Assembly (NCBI GenBank): GCA_964515915.1
Contig: CAZEXM010000003.1
Span: 1 to 45,092, forward strand
Direction of reading: 5' to 3'
DNA from: an uncultured Victivallaceae bacterium
GTDB taxonomy: Bacteria; Verrucomicrobiota; Lentisphaeria; Victivallales; Victivallaceae
DNA length: 45,092 nucleotides
The position numbers and the translations under genes are program-made. Below the pieces are notes generated by a model. It had not been told where the DNA came from. It did no database searches and saw only the letters and a list, made by a program, of their open reading frames with translations. Positions within the stretch are counted from its first letter, which is position 1. The number at the start of each line of letters is the position of its first letter. Shown here one piece after another: positions 38,293 through 45,092 of the stretch.

Positions 38293-38315
38293 ATGATTTA
38301 CAGCGCGGAGTGAAA

Positions 38316-40139
38316 ATGAACGAATATCAAGTAATCGCCAGAAAATGGAGACCACAGCGTTTCAGCGATGTTGTTGGCCAGGAGCATGTTGTAAAGACAC
38401 TGAAAAATGCTATCCGTCAACAACGGACGGCGCATGCTTACTTATTTGTCGGCCCCCGCGGTATCGGGAAAACCACGACGGCGCGTATTTTCGCCAAAGC
38501 CTTGAACTGCGCGGCTCCCGAAGACGGCGAACCATGCTGTAAATGTCAATCCTGCGTAAGCATTGCCGAAGAAAATAATATCGACGTTATTGAAATCGAT
38601 GCCGCCAGCCAGAATTCCGTTGACAATATCCGTGATTTGCGCGACGAAGTATTGCACATGCCCATCAGCTGCCGCTACAAAATCTATATTATCGACGAAG
38701 TTCACATGTTGAGCAAGAGCGCCTGGAACGCGTTGCTCAAGACTGTTGAAGAACCCCCCGCGCACGTCAAATTTATTTTCGCGACGACCGAAGTTCACAT
38801 GGTTCTGGCGACAATTATTTCCCGTTGTCAGCGTTTTGATTTAAAACCGATTTCAAGCGGCCTGATCTCCACACGGCTCGCGGAAATCGCCGCCGCGGAA
38901 AAAGTTATAATATCACCGGAAGCGATAAGCGCGATTGCCCGCGCCGCGGATGGCGGAATGCGCGACGCACAATCCCTGCTTGATCAAATGATCGCTTTTT
39001 TCAGCGGTAATGACCGGGAAATCAGCGAAGAACAAGTTTTATCATTATTCGGCCTGACCGGATCAAATGATTTGGTAAAAATAGTGAGCGCGATACTTAA
39101 CAACGATCGCGGCGGAGTAGTCGCGGCAATTCATACTCTCGCGGTCAAAGGCAAAAACCTCGAAACGCTGTTCAGCGACATTCTAAATTATCTCCGGGGA
39201 ATACAGCTTTGCCATCTTTTGAGCAACCCGGAAGCCGTCCTCGAAAGCGATCCTGAAAGCATTAAACGTTTCCGTGAACTCGGCGGAAATATTAATCCTG
39301 ACACAATTCAAATTTTAATGGAAAACCTTTCCTCAGTCGGACGGGTTCTCCACGACGCTATCAATAAACAAGTGTTCCTTGAAACCATTATCCTGAAAGC
39401 AATGCGCATCGCGCATTCCGTTAAAATAGCGGATTTGATCGCGCGTTTGAATTATCTGCGCAAAGCCGGTGATTTGAAATTCCTGGAGCAAATTCCCGCG
39501 ACAAGCACCCCCGCAAACATCCCGGAACCAGTGAAAACCGTCGTCGCTCCAGTAGAAACAGCAGTACCCGAATCCAAACCTGAGCCTGTTTCGCCTTCCG
39601 AACCGGAGTTAAAATTTGATCCCGCGCCCGAAGCGGAAGCGGTTAAAGACGAGCTGACTCCAAATAGTTTATGGCAGCAGACAATTAAATTTATAAAAGC
39701 AGATAACCTTGTTGACCCGACGGCAGTGAATTACATGAATGAAGGGAGTCCGCAAAGTTTTGAAAATTCCATGTTAAGTGTTATTTTTTATGAAGAGTTC
39801 GACGCCGCACATTATACCGCGGTCAAAAAGATTTTGCCGTCGATTCACAGAGCGGTTCAAGCAATTACGGGCGACTGGGCTGTAACCGTTGATCTAATCC
39901 ACAAGGAAGGCGTCAGGGCTATTCATAAAAAAGTCGAAGACGAAATCCCCGAGCCCGAAGCGGAGGAACTGGCTCTTTCGACGGAAACAAACGGCGAAAA
40001 CATGCCGGTTGAAACCCGGACAAAGAATGTGACCAGCGTCGTCGGTGATAAAGAAGTCGTCGATGCGGTCAAACAAAAAGAAATAGTGAACGCTTCTTTG
40101 GATTTATTCGGCGGCACTATCGTAGATGTTCACGGTTAA
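38316..40139 (+). CDS. dnaX: DNA polymerase III subunit gamma/tau
   Basis: KWRPQRFSDVVGQEHV, Walker A GPRGIGKTT, a Cys4 zinc module (CCKCQSC), DEVHML and the SRCQRF sensor. The ATG at 38316 follows GGAG. Confidence 0.95.
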   Translation: MNEYQVIARKWRPQRFSDVVGQEHVVKTLKNAIRQQRTAHAYLFVGPRGIGKTTTARIFAKALNCAAPEDGEPCCKCQSCVSIAEENNIDVIEIDAASQNSVDNIRDLRDEVLHMPISCRYKIYIIDEVHMLSKSAWNALLKTVEEPPAHVKFIFATTEVHMVLATIISRCQRFDLKPISSGLISTRLAEIAAAEKVIISPEAISAIARAADGGMRDAQSLLDQMIAFFSGNDREISEEQVLSLFGLTGSNDLVKIVSAILNNDRGGVVAAIHTLAVKGKNLETLFSDILNYLRGIQLCHLLSNPEAVLESDPESIKRFRELGGNINPDTIQILMENLSSVGRVLHDAINKQVFLETIILKAMRIAHSVKIADLIARLNYLRKAGDLKFLEQIPATSTPANIPEPVKTVVAPVETAVPESKPEPVSPSEPELKFDPAPEAEAVKDELTPNSLWQQTIKFIKADNLVDPTAVNYMNEGSPQSFENSMLSVIFYEEFDAAHYTAVKKILPSIHRAVQAITGDWAVTVDLIHKEGVRAIHKKVEDEIPEPEAEELALSTETNGENMPVETRTKNVTSVVGDKEVVDAVKQKEIVNASLDLFGGTIVDVHG

Positions 40140-40169
40140 GATTTATAATTTAGAAACTAAGGAAACAAT

Positions 40170-40487
40170 ATGTTTGGAAATTTAGGTGAAATGGCCGGCC
40201 TTATGAAAAAGGCAAAAGATATGAAGCAGAATATTGCAAAAATGAAAGAAGAAATATCGGGCAGTGAATTTTACGGGACTTGTCCCGGCGACAAAGTCAG
40301 CGTCGTTCTCAGTGGCGATTTTCAAGTACGGCAAATCAAGATTTCCCCTGACGCGGCGGCGGATATTGAAGCTCTCGAGGATTTAGTTAAAACCGCCGTC
40401 AACAGCGCGGTATCTTCTGCTCAAAGCAATATTCAGGAAAAAATGAAAGAAGTTACCGGCGGAATTAACATCCCGGGATTATTCTAA
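40170..40487 (+). CDS. ybaB: YbaB/EbfC family nucleoid-associated protein
   Basis: 105 aa, with an MFGNLGEMAGLMKKAKDMKQNIAKMKEE N-terminus typical of the family. It sits in the conserved position between dnaX and recR. Confidence 0.85.
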   Translation: MFGNLGEMAGLMKKAKDMKQNIAKMKEEISGSEFYGTCPGDKVSVVLSGDFQVRQIKISPDAAADIEALEDLVKTAVNSAVSSAQSNIQEKMKEVTGGINIPGLF

Positions 40488-40688
40488 GCGGCATATTATG
40501 AGATTGGGGTGAAAGGAAAAACTTTTTGTTTTTTTTAATATAACGAGGCCGACGTATCGGCTCCTTTCCCCCAAAACCCCCTTTTCCTTTTCAAAAACTT
40601 TTGGGATACCAAGTTCACTCAGGCAACAAGTTGCCTGTTTAAACTTGGGAGTTTGTGTAAAAATAGAGAAATAGTGGAGACGCTTAAT

Positions 40689-41297
40689 ATGGTTGAATTC
40701 AAATATCCAGAGGCTCTTGAGGAAATTATCATTCATCTGAAACGTTTGCCGGGCATCGGCAGGCGGACGGCTGAACGTCTTGCCCTTGCCATGCTCAAAT
40801 GGAAAGGCGAAAAAATTATAGCATTTGGTGAATCTCTGCAAAAATTACCTTTGACGGTAACTTTTTGTCCTGAATGCGGTGGTCTCGCCGAAAACGACGA
40901 AAAATGTTTAATTTGTCAGGCACCCGGCCGCGATACAAAACTGCTTTGTGTGCTTGAAGATTTCAGTCAGATAATGTCTATAGAAAGCAGCAGTTATTAC
41001 AAAGGCCTCTATCATGTTCTCGGCGGTAAACTCAGCCCGCTTCAAAACCGTTCCGCCGCAGACTTGAATATCGATACTTTGCTCCAGCGCATCGACAAAC
41101 TCGAGATTCGGGAAATAATCCTGGCGCTCAGCCCTGATGTTGAAGGCCAGGCTACTGCAGTATATATCGCGAATTTGCTCAAAGATAAAGCAGTTAAAAT
41201 TACCCGTTTGGCGCAGGGGCTTCCTGCGGGTGCGGATATTTCTTTTGCTGATGCTGCGACTATTGGGGCTGCGCTCACGGGAAGAAGAAATATATAA
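40689..41297 (+). CDS. recR: recombination protein RecR
   Basis: HhH LPGIGRRTAERLA, the Cys4 finger CPECG...CLICQ and a Toprim block (LCVLEDFSQIMSIE). I use the start at MVEFKYP (40689). Confidence 0.9.
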   Translation: MVEFKYPEALEEIIIHLKRLPGIGRRTAERLALAMLKWKGEKIIAFGESLQKLPLTVTFCPECGGLAENDEKCLICQAPGRDTKLLCVLEDFSQIMSIESSSYYKGLYHVLGGKLSPLQNRSAADLNIDTLLQRIDKLEIREIILALSPDVEGQATAVYIANLLKDKAVKITRLAQGLPAGADISFADAATIGAALTGRRNI

Positions 41298-41320
41298 AAG
41301 CCGGATGTAACGGCCCCGTG
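41278..41320. repeat. outer inverted repeat, left arm (includes the last recR codons and stop)
   Basis: cgggaagaagaaatatataaaagccggatgtaacggccccgtg is the near-exact reverse complement of 42831-42872. Confidence 0.85.
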
Positions 41321-41327
41321 ATCCAAC

Positions 41328-41518
41328 GGCGGGCAGCGTTGGTCGAAATCTCCAATTTCGAAACTTAAGCGGCTTGCCGCGCATTAGACCAATTCCGCTC
41401 TCGAAAAGCGAAGCTTTCAAAAAATAAGCTTGCGATATTTTTTTAAAGACCTGAGCGGTCGAGCTCTCCCTCAACTCTATATTTCCCGCGTGAGCGTTTT
41501 TAAAATCCCTTGCAGGGG
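41328..41518. repeat. inner inverted repeat, left arm
   Basis: It is the reverse complement of 42546-42737. The 71 nt at 41328-41398 are perfect. The remainder is roughly three-quarters to four-fifths identical by eye, including tatatttcccgcgtgagcg. Confidence 0.85.
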
Positions 41519-41831
41519 ATTTCCCTCCACTGCCCCCGGCAACGCCGTGGGTATTATGCCCCCGGCGAGTCGTTCCCTGTAAGGGAACTTCAATATTCCG
41601 CACAACTCTATAAGCTTTTACTTTTGATTACTTGAACAATAAACTTAATGGAAGTATATATAATTAAGCTGAAAAATTGTCATAATATTGTCAGTAAAAT
41701 CAGGGAAGGAAATTGTTATGAAAACTTGGATATCTATAATGTTTTTAAACTGATTCCATTAAGGAAATGTATGAATGCCAATCAAAGCTAGTACACTATA
41801 CAGCTTAAATGTTCGCATTGTATATAAAAAA

Positions 41832-41885
41832 TGTAGCTCAAGCGTCTCGCTTGAATATCTTCACAACCGAGACGGTTGTGCTACA
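41832..41885. repeat. 54-nt palindromic element, copy 2 (diverged)
   Basis: tgtagctcaagcgtctcgcttg ... cacaaccgagacggttgtgctaca is the same element as 2729-2782, with a few substitutions in each arm. Confidence 0.75.
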
Positions 41886-41983
41886 TTAATTTATGAAAAA
41901 AATACGAAGTTTTAAATTTTACAGTATACTAGATGGGCTCTTTAGTAAAATAGAAAACAAGAATAAATTGGTAACTAAAAGTA

Positions 41984-42469
41984 ATGAATAAAAAGTTTCT
42001 TGATAAATTTAAAATTTGTGATGAAGAGATGCTCTTAGAATTTTTTATTTTATATTCGAGATTAGAATATGCATTAAAACGAACTGGCTTTTTAAAAAGT
42101 ACAGATAATGCACAAGCAGATTGGGATGATTTTATTTCAAATATTAAAGATAAGTTCGATAAAAACAAAAATGAAAAACTTGAAAAAGCTGTAAAATATT
42201 TATTAGAATATCCAGCAAAAAAGCAAGTTACTAATGGAAAACTTGATTTTGTGTCTTGCCCAACGACAAGTTCAGGTTCTGACATAATTCGCCTTCGTCA
42301 CTGTATTAGAATTACAAGAAATAATTTGTTTCATGGCGGTAAATATTCTCAAGGTTCAGTTGAAGGAGCTGAGAGAAATAAAGAACTTCTTGAAAACAGC
42401 ATTGTTGTCATCAAAGAATTTATTAGGCTAAACCGAAAGGTTAATAATGCATTTGGGAACATGGAATAA
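41984..42469 (+). CDS. HEPN-domain-like protein (putative RNase toxin / abortive-infection-type effector)
   Basis: 161-aa ORF in AT-rich DNA. RITRNNLFHGGK contains the R-N-x-x-x-H (R-x4-H) motif that defines HEPN active sites. The composition looks helical (EFFILYSRLEYALKRTGF). A weak A/T hairpin follows the stop (42465-42489). Confidence 0.55.
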   Translation: MNKKFLDKFKICDEEMLLEFFILYSRLEYALKRTGFLKSTDNAQADWDDFISNIKDKFDKNKNEKLEKAVKYLLEYPAKKQVTNGKLDFVSCPTTSSGSDIIRLRHCIRITRNNLFHGGKYSQGSVEGAERNKELLENSIVVIKEFIRLNRKVNNAFGNME

Positions 42470-42545
42470 TATTGTTAATAAATATTATTATTTCAAGCGC
42501 ATACCAATAATACTGTAACTAAATCACTTGCATCTTTTTGTAGTT

Positions 42546-42737
42546 CCCTTGCAGGGATTTTAAAAAACGCTCACGCGGGAAATATAAAGTTGCGGAAAAG
42601 GCTCGAACGTTCGCATCTTTTCAAAAAATATCGCTTCGCTTTTTTTGAAAAGCCTCACTTTTCGAGGCGGAATTGGTCTAATGCGCGGCAAGCCGCTTAA
42701 GTTTCGAAATTGGAGATTTCGACCAACGCTGCCCGCC
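42546..42737. repeat. inner inverted repeat, right arm
   Basis: It is the reverse complement of 41328-41518. The perfect 71-nt core is at 42667-42737. Confidence 0.85.
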
Positions 42738-42830
42738 GCCAAACAAGTTTGGATTTATTATGACTGACTTACATACTGCAATCATAATTGCTCGAAAAAG
42801 TATATCCATATATCGAAGGCGACGTTCGCC

Positions 42831-42872
42831 CACGGGGCCGTTACGTCCGGCTTTTTTATATTTTTCTTCCCG
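42831..42872. repeat. outer inverted repeat, right arm
   Basis: cacggggccgttacgtccggcttttttatatttttcttcccg is the reverse complement of the recR 3-prime end and its immediate downstream sequence. Confidence 0.85.
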
Positions 42873-42946
42873 AAAGCCTTAGTTCTATTGCTTGTAAAAA
42901 CACATATATGCAGTAATTTAATAAGTAATAGAATAAAATGATTTAA

Positions 42947-45092
<2,146 letters not shown>

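Follow-up and report, generated by a model that had tools for sequence, protein, structure and literature searches.

How a HEPN ribonuclease might be held in check when no neutralising partner is encoded beside it is the question raised by a short open reading frame (ORF) in a 45,092-nucleotide (nt) stretch of DNA from an uncultured Victivallaceae bacterium (contig CAZEXM010000003.1, positions 1 to 45,092, hereafter the window). The ORF occupies positions 41984..42469 of the + strand, starts with ATG and encodes 161 residues, exactly as given in an earlier reading of the window (the original prediction), which had described its product as a solitary HEPN-like protein carrying the motif RNNLFH, and had proposed that its control could be RNA-based. 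The motif is found at residues 112-117 (nt 42317-42334), in the C-terminal half and after a helical N-terminal part, as both the sequence and the predicted structure bear out. Our analyses show that the gene is real and conserved, that no partner gene is conserved anywhere in its family, and that the copy studied here arrived recently, as a lone AT-rich gene inserted between recR and gyrB. The family itself is probably a divergent, minimal branch of the HEPN superfamily, located at the fringe of the Pfam family HEPN_Apea.

Taken on its own, the motif is weak evidence and could be a chance occurrence: when the window protein is shuffled, 28% of the resulting sequences contain R.{4,6}H, and 0.9% contain RNxxxH. 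It is lifted above chance by its conservation across 144 diverse relatives. A first search returned 28 homologues of 59% to 30% identity (down to E 3e-6), all of them unnamed and none with a Pfam domain, and their alignment has E28, K32 and R-N-N-x-F-H-G-G-K as invariant positions. A profile search covering 1.84 billion representative proteins (E <= 0.001, clusters at 50% identity) matched at least 2,331 clusters, 544 of them below 1e-30, and nearly all of the matches are stand-alone proteins of 150-180 residues, for which the only name given by any source is "hypothetical protein". In an alignment of 144 diverse members (A2), R112, E28, G118 and K120 are each present in 144/144 sequences and H117, N113 and R131 in 143/144, such that the arginine and histidine of the motif are indeed conserved among homologues, while W47 (137/144), P77 (136/144), P78 and Q81 (136/144) are each kept in more than 90%. 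The conserved residues are all intact in the window protein, where the position of P78 is occupied by alanine; the exact window protein has no record in the contig index. Relatives are present in 473 of 185,579 species genomes (approximately 0.25%, counting one genome per species), and are distributed sporadically across bacterial phyla and archaea, with carriers among Bacteroidota, Planctomycetota, Desulfobacterota, Acidobacteriota, Proteobacteria, Chloroflexota, the candidate phyla radiation (CPR) and Methanosarcinaceae.

The HEPN assignment is carried by profile comparisons at the level of the family. P0270, a natural member sharing 45% identity with the window protein, reaches a score of 25.0 bits with HEPN_Apea (PF18739; cut-off 24.4 bits, model length 136), with its residues 32-145 aligned to profile positions 14-126, and is also flagged as PF18739 in a precomputed table. 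The consensus of the close-homologue alignment (A1) reaches 26.8 bits (E 7.8e-6; residues 37-140 against positions 14-113), and E 0.0055 was obtained with a broader consensus. P0270 and the A1 consensus show similarity of borderline significance to a known HEPN family, and the window protein itself does not; the search of profile libraries that the original prediction had put forward as a check therefore succeeds with these two sequences, and draws a blank with the protein for which it was proposed. When the 144 members were scanned singly, weak matches to HEPN_Apea were obtained for 5/144 (best E 1.9e-4) and to HEPN_Swt1 for 3/144, these being the only Pfam families matched by at least three members that recurred in later scans. 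Among all weak member matches only these two and DUF4145 recurred, and every sub-threshold stretch matched to one of the three covers the RNNLFHGG region. (Concatenates of members joined by GS linkers produced artefactual Serglycin hits and inflated whole-sequence E-values, and only the locations of matched stretches were used from them.) Members also have weak matches to 17 families of PADLOC, an independent library, and 13 of these contain a HEPN domain, including Cas13a, several CARF_HEPN, Csx1/Csm6, Cas13-ApeA and RTasHEPN. A single PADLOC match to HEC-05 was dropped as a lead, given that HEC-05 is GmrSD/BrxU-like and not HEPN. Moreover, RNNLFH is of the Rx4-6H type with a polar residue after the arginine.

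The predicted structure is consistent with this assignment. In the better of two AlphaFold models (predicted local distance difference test score, pLDDT, 90.5, the other having 85.7; predicted template modelling score, pTM, 0.86), a helix at residues 100-116 ends in the predicted catalytic Rx4H motif (R112-N-N-L-F-H117-G-G-K120; codons 42317..42343, + strand) and runs into a loop that is followed by the last helix, 129-158, whereas the invariant E28 (codon 42065..42067, + strand) is placed in a preceding long N-terminal helix, 14-33. HEPN domains have been described as having the motif at a helix end, a conserved acidic residue in helix 2 and an insert between the two (PMC3710099). The modelled helix layout fits that description, with E28 predicted to lie at the position expected of the acidic residue. 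Between the core helices, residues ~34-99 (42083..42280, + strand) make up a conserved insert, in which the model and the alignment together place two short helices, a beta-hairpin, W47 and a P-P-K-K-Q motif. We regard this insert as a candidate sensing or RNA-binding part of the protein.

The original prediction saw no MNT nucleotidyltransferase and no antitoxin-sized gene adjoining the ORF, an observation that holds in the window and across the family as a whole. When all ORFs lying up to 4 kb from the gene at 93 loci were clustered by BLAST, no neighbour cluster was common to more than 6 loci. The 150 immediate neighbours include no Pfam family seen more than twice, and neither an MNT nucleotidyltransferase nor a recurrent small protein is among the 25 most frequent neighbour families listed. 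The spacing and orientation of the nearest gene also vary widely between loci. What the 93 loci demonstrate by this is genomic rather than functional independence. Several members are carried by integrons. At two loci, one from Nitrospira (L083) and one from Vibrio (L034), the ORF constitutes a single-ORF integron cassette bounded by attC sites, with about 20 nt between the upstream attC and the ATG and the next attC directly after the stop codon; since the ORF fills the space between the two sites, such cassettes have no room for a partner. Sites of this type, recognised by an inverse core RYYYAAC followed by a core GTTRRRY, recur every 600-900 nt in both arrays, as CTAAC...GTTAGRT repeats every 600-750 nt at the Nitrospira locus and as VCR-like (Vibrio cholerae repeat) sites, ATAACAAA...GCGGCGTTAT, at the Vibrio locus. 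Inspection by eye of the 75 nt after the stop codon of the window copy found no attC-like core pair, and its flanks consist of inverted native spacer.

Integron cassettes are one of several mobile contexts in which the gene is found. Relatives occur on viral contigs at 29 loci, and in three annotated viral contigs the gene lies beside an integrase, beside a transposase and inside a baseplate gene cluster, respectively. In the last of these the order is baseplate hub, phrog_3443, this gene, an unannotated ORF of 250 residues, and baseplate wedge subunits; six prophage-like loci (L166, L168, L169, L172, L173 and L174) share one layout, with the gene in the tail baseplate cluster, which is an unusual position for an accessory insert. 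The GC content of the gene is more than 5 points below that of its flanks in 51 of 73 loci, and higher in none. Known defence genes are found beside some members, among them nSTAND3, Fic, TIR, PIN_12, PD-Lambda-3/4, MADS, DRT, Lamassu (LmuB), HerA and pAgo. The family spreads horizontally as single genes, in the form of integron cassettes, prophage inserts, defence-island genes and, in the window, a lone AT-rich insert.

Fusions are rare. Some members (P0088, P0119) carry an N-terminal DUF6884 domain, which is YaaA-like, DNA-binding and proposed to bind DNA lesions. P0119 has a further N-terminal region of ~300 residues that ends in a Cys-x6-C-x2-C-x5-C cluster, which by eye we take to resemble the iron-sulfur loop of EndoIII-type glycosylases. 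Also by eye, P0066 has a GNAT-like motif, and the N-terminus of P0249 looks like an 'Unstab_antitox' peptide. PDB sequence searches with the N-terminal domains of the fused members P0119, P0066 and P0194 gave no match.

At the locus itself the gene order is dnaX (38310-40139), ybaB (40170-40487), recR (40653-41297), the ORF and gyrB, and the ORF is situated in the gap between the end of recR at 41297 and the ATG of gyrB at 42971. It is part of an unstranded low-GC island (41600..42544), in which the composition profile falls to 23-35% GC, compared with ~45% in the genes on either side. In related strains represented in sequencing runs X3 and X5, recR, the right one of two repeat arms that flank the island, and gyrB are all covered by reads, and depth is zero over 42010-42411. 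The gene is likewise absent from L096, which has ~80% nucleotide identity to the window across dnaX, recR and gyrB; its recR-gyrB spacer measures ~500 nt and contains a single arm copy, in right-arm orientation, and no ORF. Consequently, both the island and the left arm, with its inverted spacer copy, were added recently and in this lineage only.

With moderate confidence, we favour the view that the protein is a self-contained, minimal, stand-alone HEPN endoribonuclease, horizontally acquired, with a role in genetic conflict and an intrinsically limited activity. R112 and H117, together with E28, would form the active site of a metal-independent endoribonuclease, which probably acts as a homodimer with a shared active site, in the manner of other HEPN enzymes. 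Its role would probably lie in conflict with phages or other mobile elements, via abortive infection or growth arrest. Given that no partner gene exists anywhere in the family, restraint is probably intrinsic to the protein rather than due to an antitoxin protein or RNA, and could take the form of a narrow RNA target, or of activation by a ligand, by oligomerisation or by a phage product, exerted through the conserved 34-99 insert. Precedents for HEPN defence by a single gene exist in ApeA (bioRxiv 10.64898/2026.01.26.701840), HEC-08 (10.1101/2024.01.29.577857) and the cassette protein Esos.

Between the flanking genes the original prediction had listed repeat arms, a palindromic element and a 32-codon micro-ORF as the only neighbours of the ORF. 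All three are present, yet the nature of each requires correction. The left arm (41278..41519) begins inside the last 20 nt of recR and is, by self-alignment, an extra inverted copy of the spacer upstream of gyrB, whereas the right arm (42545..42872) retains the ancestral spacer orientation, judged by comparison with L096, and bears a terminator-like hairpin at 42834-42854 (+ strand); neither arm is assigned a strand. Positions 41327-41519 pair with 42545-42738 over 197 nt (87.8%), including a core of 72 nt without mismatches, and 41278-41331 pair with 42820-42872 at 87%. The arms are an inverted duplication, of ~200-330 nt, of the native recR-gyrB spacer. Flanking inverted repeats are found at no other family locus, and we reject them as a family trait or as the ends of a mobile element, as they are specific to the window and derive from native spacer; neither a recombinase nor a transposase is located near the duplicated spacer and the island.

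The palindrome (41788..41932, unstranded) has a near-perfect 59-nt hairpin core at 41830-41888, AATGTAGCnCAAGCGTCTCGCTTG...CGAGACGnTTGTGCTACATT, with a fold energy of -42.4 kcal/mol. It has a second copy in the window at 2724-2785, and in run X1 it shows ~100-fold excess depth with many unrelated flanks. It is a dispersed, multi-copy, REP-like (repetitive extragenic palindromic) repeat, apparently of the organism or its community, and the second copy and the excess depth rule it out as a specific regulatory partner. The micro-ORF (41893..41991, + strand) is what remains of an upstream gene truncated to its 3' end, because its last 20 codons (~41928-41991) match the C-terminus of a Sel1-repeat protein of 182 residues at L093, encoded just upstream of P0002, the closest homologue of the window protein (tblastn 75% over 20 residues; blastn 83% over 54 nt). 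Homology between the window and L093 begins at ~41928 and ends at the stop codon of the HEPN-like gene, as seen in alignments of the C-terminus and of the DNA. As such a relic, and with Sel1 neighbours confined to one lineage (jackhmmer detected none at other family loci), the micro-ORF is ruled out as an antitoxin. At L093 (1430-1978) a membrane-anchored Sel1-repeat protein is encoded directly before the closest homologue (59% identity), the two genes sharing 8 nt at the Sel1 stop codon and the HEPN-like start, and the ~55 nt before the ATG are 83% conserved between L093 and the window, more than the ORF is when judged by eye. A functional pairing of the Sel1-repeat and HEPN-like proteins may exist, confined to this sub-lineage.

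Further repeats surround the locus. Between ybaB and recR there are ~188 nt (40488-40675), compared with 2 nt in the closest relatives L094, L095 and L097; this segment has 8-fold excess depth in X1, is linked in inverted orientation to the arm region by contig joints (40636/41593 and 40662/41463), and is probably another copy of a small mobile repeat. A GC-rich segment of ~60 nt at the inner end of the left arm (41532-41593) has excess depth and unrelated flanks in X1, X3 and X4, and appears to be a further short dispersed repeat. The metagenome contigs of three close relatives, L094, L095 and L098, break off only a few bases from the recR stop codon, which suggests that the repeat-rich spacer 3' of recR breaks assemblies in this lineage generally. 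At the far end of the window, an 18-nt unit, GTTGATGCCGAAGCTGAA, is repeated in tandem over 45002-45091.

If restraint does not come from the protein, it might come from RNA, a possibility that the original prediction had raised. On such an account a toxin would be checked by a cis-encoded RNA (a type III-like repeat, an antisense or a type I-like RNA), or by a double-stranded stem that the arms form in a read-through transcript. No protein partner exists, and the arms would cofold with -414.5 kcal/mol as against -194 for the two arms separately; no + strand terminator follows recR before the island, the first + strand terminator-like site being in the right arm, and immediately past the stop codon there is a weak promoter-like site on the - strand. 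A recR read-through transcript could accordingly fold the arms into a very long stem, which we would regard as a local curiosity and not as a mechanism of the family, since the arms are lineage-specific, with a single copy in L096 and no counterpart elsewhere. Furthermore, Tandem Repeats Finder (TRF, minimum score 30) reported no tandem repeats in 41250-42900, its only array being 2.1 copies of 12 nt at 42912-42936, and no repeat array of a type III toxin-antitoxin system (ToxIN-like) was found next to the gene. Rfam gave no match at E <= 1 on 40000-44000, including the palindrome copy at 41830-41888. No non-coding flank is conserved in the 93 family loci, where the only upstream similarity is the coding-gene relic, and the cassette members, hemmed in by their attC sites, offer little flank in any case. 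Promoter-like sites number 9, with 6.2 +/- 2.2 expected, a difference that is not significant; the best one 5' of the ORF (TTGTTA-16-TATAAT, 10/12, 41713..41740, + strand) is identified by consensus match alone, and no RNA runs containing the ORF were found. RNA-based control is therefore not supported, nor is a role as RNA-based partner for the neighbours named in the original prediction (a relic, a dispersed palindrome and arms of native spacer), and we consider an RNA or arm-based restraint very unlikely. More improbable still, to the point that we give it hardly any credence, is the idea that an orphan toxin, with its antitoxin either lost or provided by a gene at another genomic site, is tolerated because it is silent here. 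The truncation of the ancestral upstream gene to a Sel1 relic would suit this idea, as would the REP-like hairpin, with its terminator-like stem, between the best promoter-like site and the ORF; yet no partner is conserved at any of the 93 loci, Sel1 neighbours are restricted to a single lineage, and the conserved residues of the window protein are intact.

Two other alternatives concern the nature of the protein rather than its control, and it is here that the evidence running counter to a HEPN nuclease engaged in conflict has to be considered. The window protein itself finds only noise in Pfam, NCBIfam and PADLOC, with no relevant model; it has no Pfam HEPN or DUF86 match, and its best Pfam match is to an unrelated family (E 7.7e-4). 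A PDB sequence search and two profile searches yielded no relative, and the Pfam scores cited in support are less than 3 bits above the cut-off. Foldseek, run with both confident models against PDB and with the better one against BFVD, found no HEPN structure and no match better than E 0.17, so that the outcome named as refuting in the original prediction, a lack of HEPN-clan similarity in profile or structure searches, has come about by half; matches to uS7 and DinB-like proteins at E ~1 are noise. In addition, a canonical HEPN bundle has four helices, and the first of these core helices is modelled as very short, at residues 3-7. These results, together with the fact that the weak matches centre on the motif region, leave some room for a different helical fold with a convergent R-N-x3-H-G-G-K motif and an unrelated activity, such as nucleotide or phosphate binding. 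We judge this quite unlikely: the alignments to Pfam run colinearly over a long stretch (~100-114 residues, with 136 positions in the model) and reach well beyond the motif, three HEPN Pfam families and ~13 HEPN PADLOC models recur with hardly anything else, and the positions of the motif and of the invariant glutamate match the HEPN description. Small helical bundles are, moreover, a hard case for Foldseek. The HEPN-like character thus stands at the profile level, if at a borderline one, in the near-invariant arginine and histidine and in the predicted helix layout, while the fold searches returned no match. The other alternative accepts the fold and proposes a non-toxic accessory factor for RNA processing or RNA binding, with a narrow substrate, no need of restraint and no part in defence. 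Many members are indeed surrounded by ordinary housekeeping genes, or appear to share operons with them (gatA/gatB, DNA ligase, RNase E/G, QueH), one being placed between gatA and gatB with gaps of 2-3 nt, and a defence role consequently rests on association only. The family lacks an antitoxin, and some HEPN proteins, such as Las1 and Swt1, do function in processing (PMC3710099). Nevertheless, an accessory, mobile, conflict-type gene fits better than a processing factor, because the family is sporadic (in ~0.25% of species genomes across all phyla), its GC content is systematically below that of the flanks, its members are found on integron cassettes and prophages and beside known defence genes, and the gene is absent from close relatives of the window genome. 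We therefore hold the processing factor to be unlikely.

Comparison with characterised systems helps to locate the conflict-type HEPN nuclease that we favour. ApeA is an abortive-infection nuclease that cleaves the tRNA anticodon loop and is inactive until a deoxydinucleotide ligand binds; Ec2ApeA extends to at least residue 583, its N-terminal (1-198) and Mid (199-309) domains contributing to the ligand pocket and the decamer, and its HEPN domain being split (bioRxiv 10.64898/2026.01.26.701840). HEPN_Apea is the best-matching Pfam model for our family, albeit with borderline similarity, both proteins have an RNxxxH-type motif on the catalytic helix, and both are encoded by single genes without an antitoxin partner. 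The window protein, however, is only 161 residues long, its HEPN-like part spans nearly all of it, and it has a conserved insert of its own at residues 34-99. It would work like the ApeA HEPN domain, to which it is distantly related, but without the N-terminal and Mid domains that characterise sensing and assembly in ApeA it does not count as an ApeA. HepT, a 'minimal HEPN' toxin of ~130-160 residues with an Rx4-6H motif, is a predicted RNase neutralised by an MNT nucleotidyltransferase (PMC7641770, PMC4621449). The likeness in size, motif and predicted activity is clear, but HepT is always paired with MNT, which is present neither in the window nor as a recurring family among the 150 neighbours; without an MNT gene and without a DUF86 or HEPN Pfam match, the window protein is not a HepT. 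Small HEPN-only proteins encoded as single-gene integron cassettes are also known from the 3jrt family (Anantharaman et al. 2013, PMC3710099). This arrangement, which Esos from the Vibrio cholerae chromosomal integron shares (Esos being compared by description), recalls the Nitrospira and Vibrio cassettes of our family, whereas the window copy has no attC sites and no similarity to the 3jrt chain was obtained in profile and fold searches. Finally, HEC-08 provides single-gene defence through a DUF3644 HEPN domain and a zinc ribbon, and mutation of its Rx4-6H histidine abolishes protection (10.1101/2024.01.29.577857); it is likewise a single-gene HEPN protein, but belongs to another HEPN family and has extra C-terminal zinc-finger domains. 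The idea of solitary HEPN defence proteins is thus already established, and what the present family contributes is a minimal stand-alone branch that no curated model covers well.

Bacterial immunity and toxin-antitoxin systems employ HEPN RNases as one of their most frequent effector types, and almost all those studied are kept in check by an antitoxin, by a sensor domain or through a signalling ligand. The family described here is reduced to little beyond the catalytic domain, and profile libraries barely detect its members; for annotation purposes, it merits a model of its own within the HEPN clan (Pfam CL0291). A bolder proposal, which we put forward tentatively and think doubtful, is that these proteins represent an unrecognised class of autonomous HEPN effectors of ~160 residues, in which the 34-99 insert replaces the sensor domains of ApeA or the antitoxin of HepT. 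If this were true, one small protein would both sense infection or stress and cut RNA, placing it among the smallest self-regulated HEPN defence modules, and such modules would be spreading widely as integron cassettes and prophage inserts. Should members of the family prove to be active nucleases, they would raise the question of how a HEPN enzyme of 160 residues spares its host, and would offer compact candidates for defence screens and RNA-cleavage tools.

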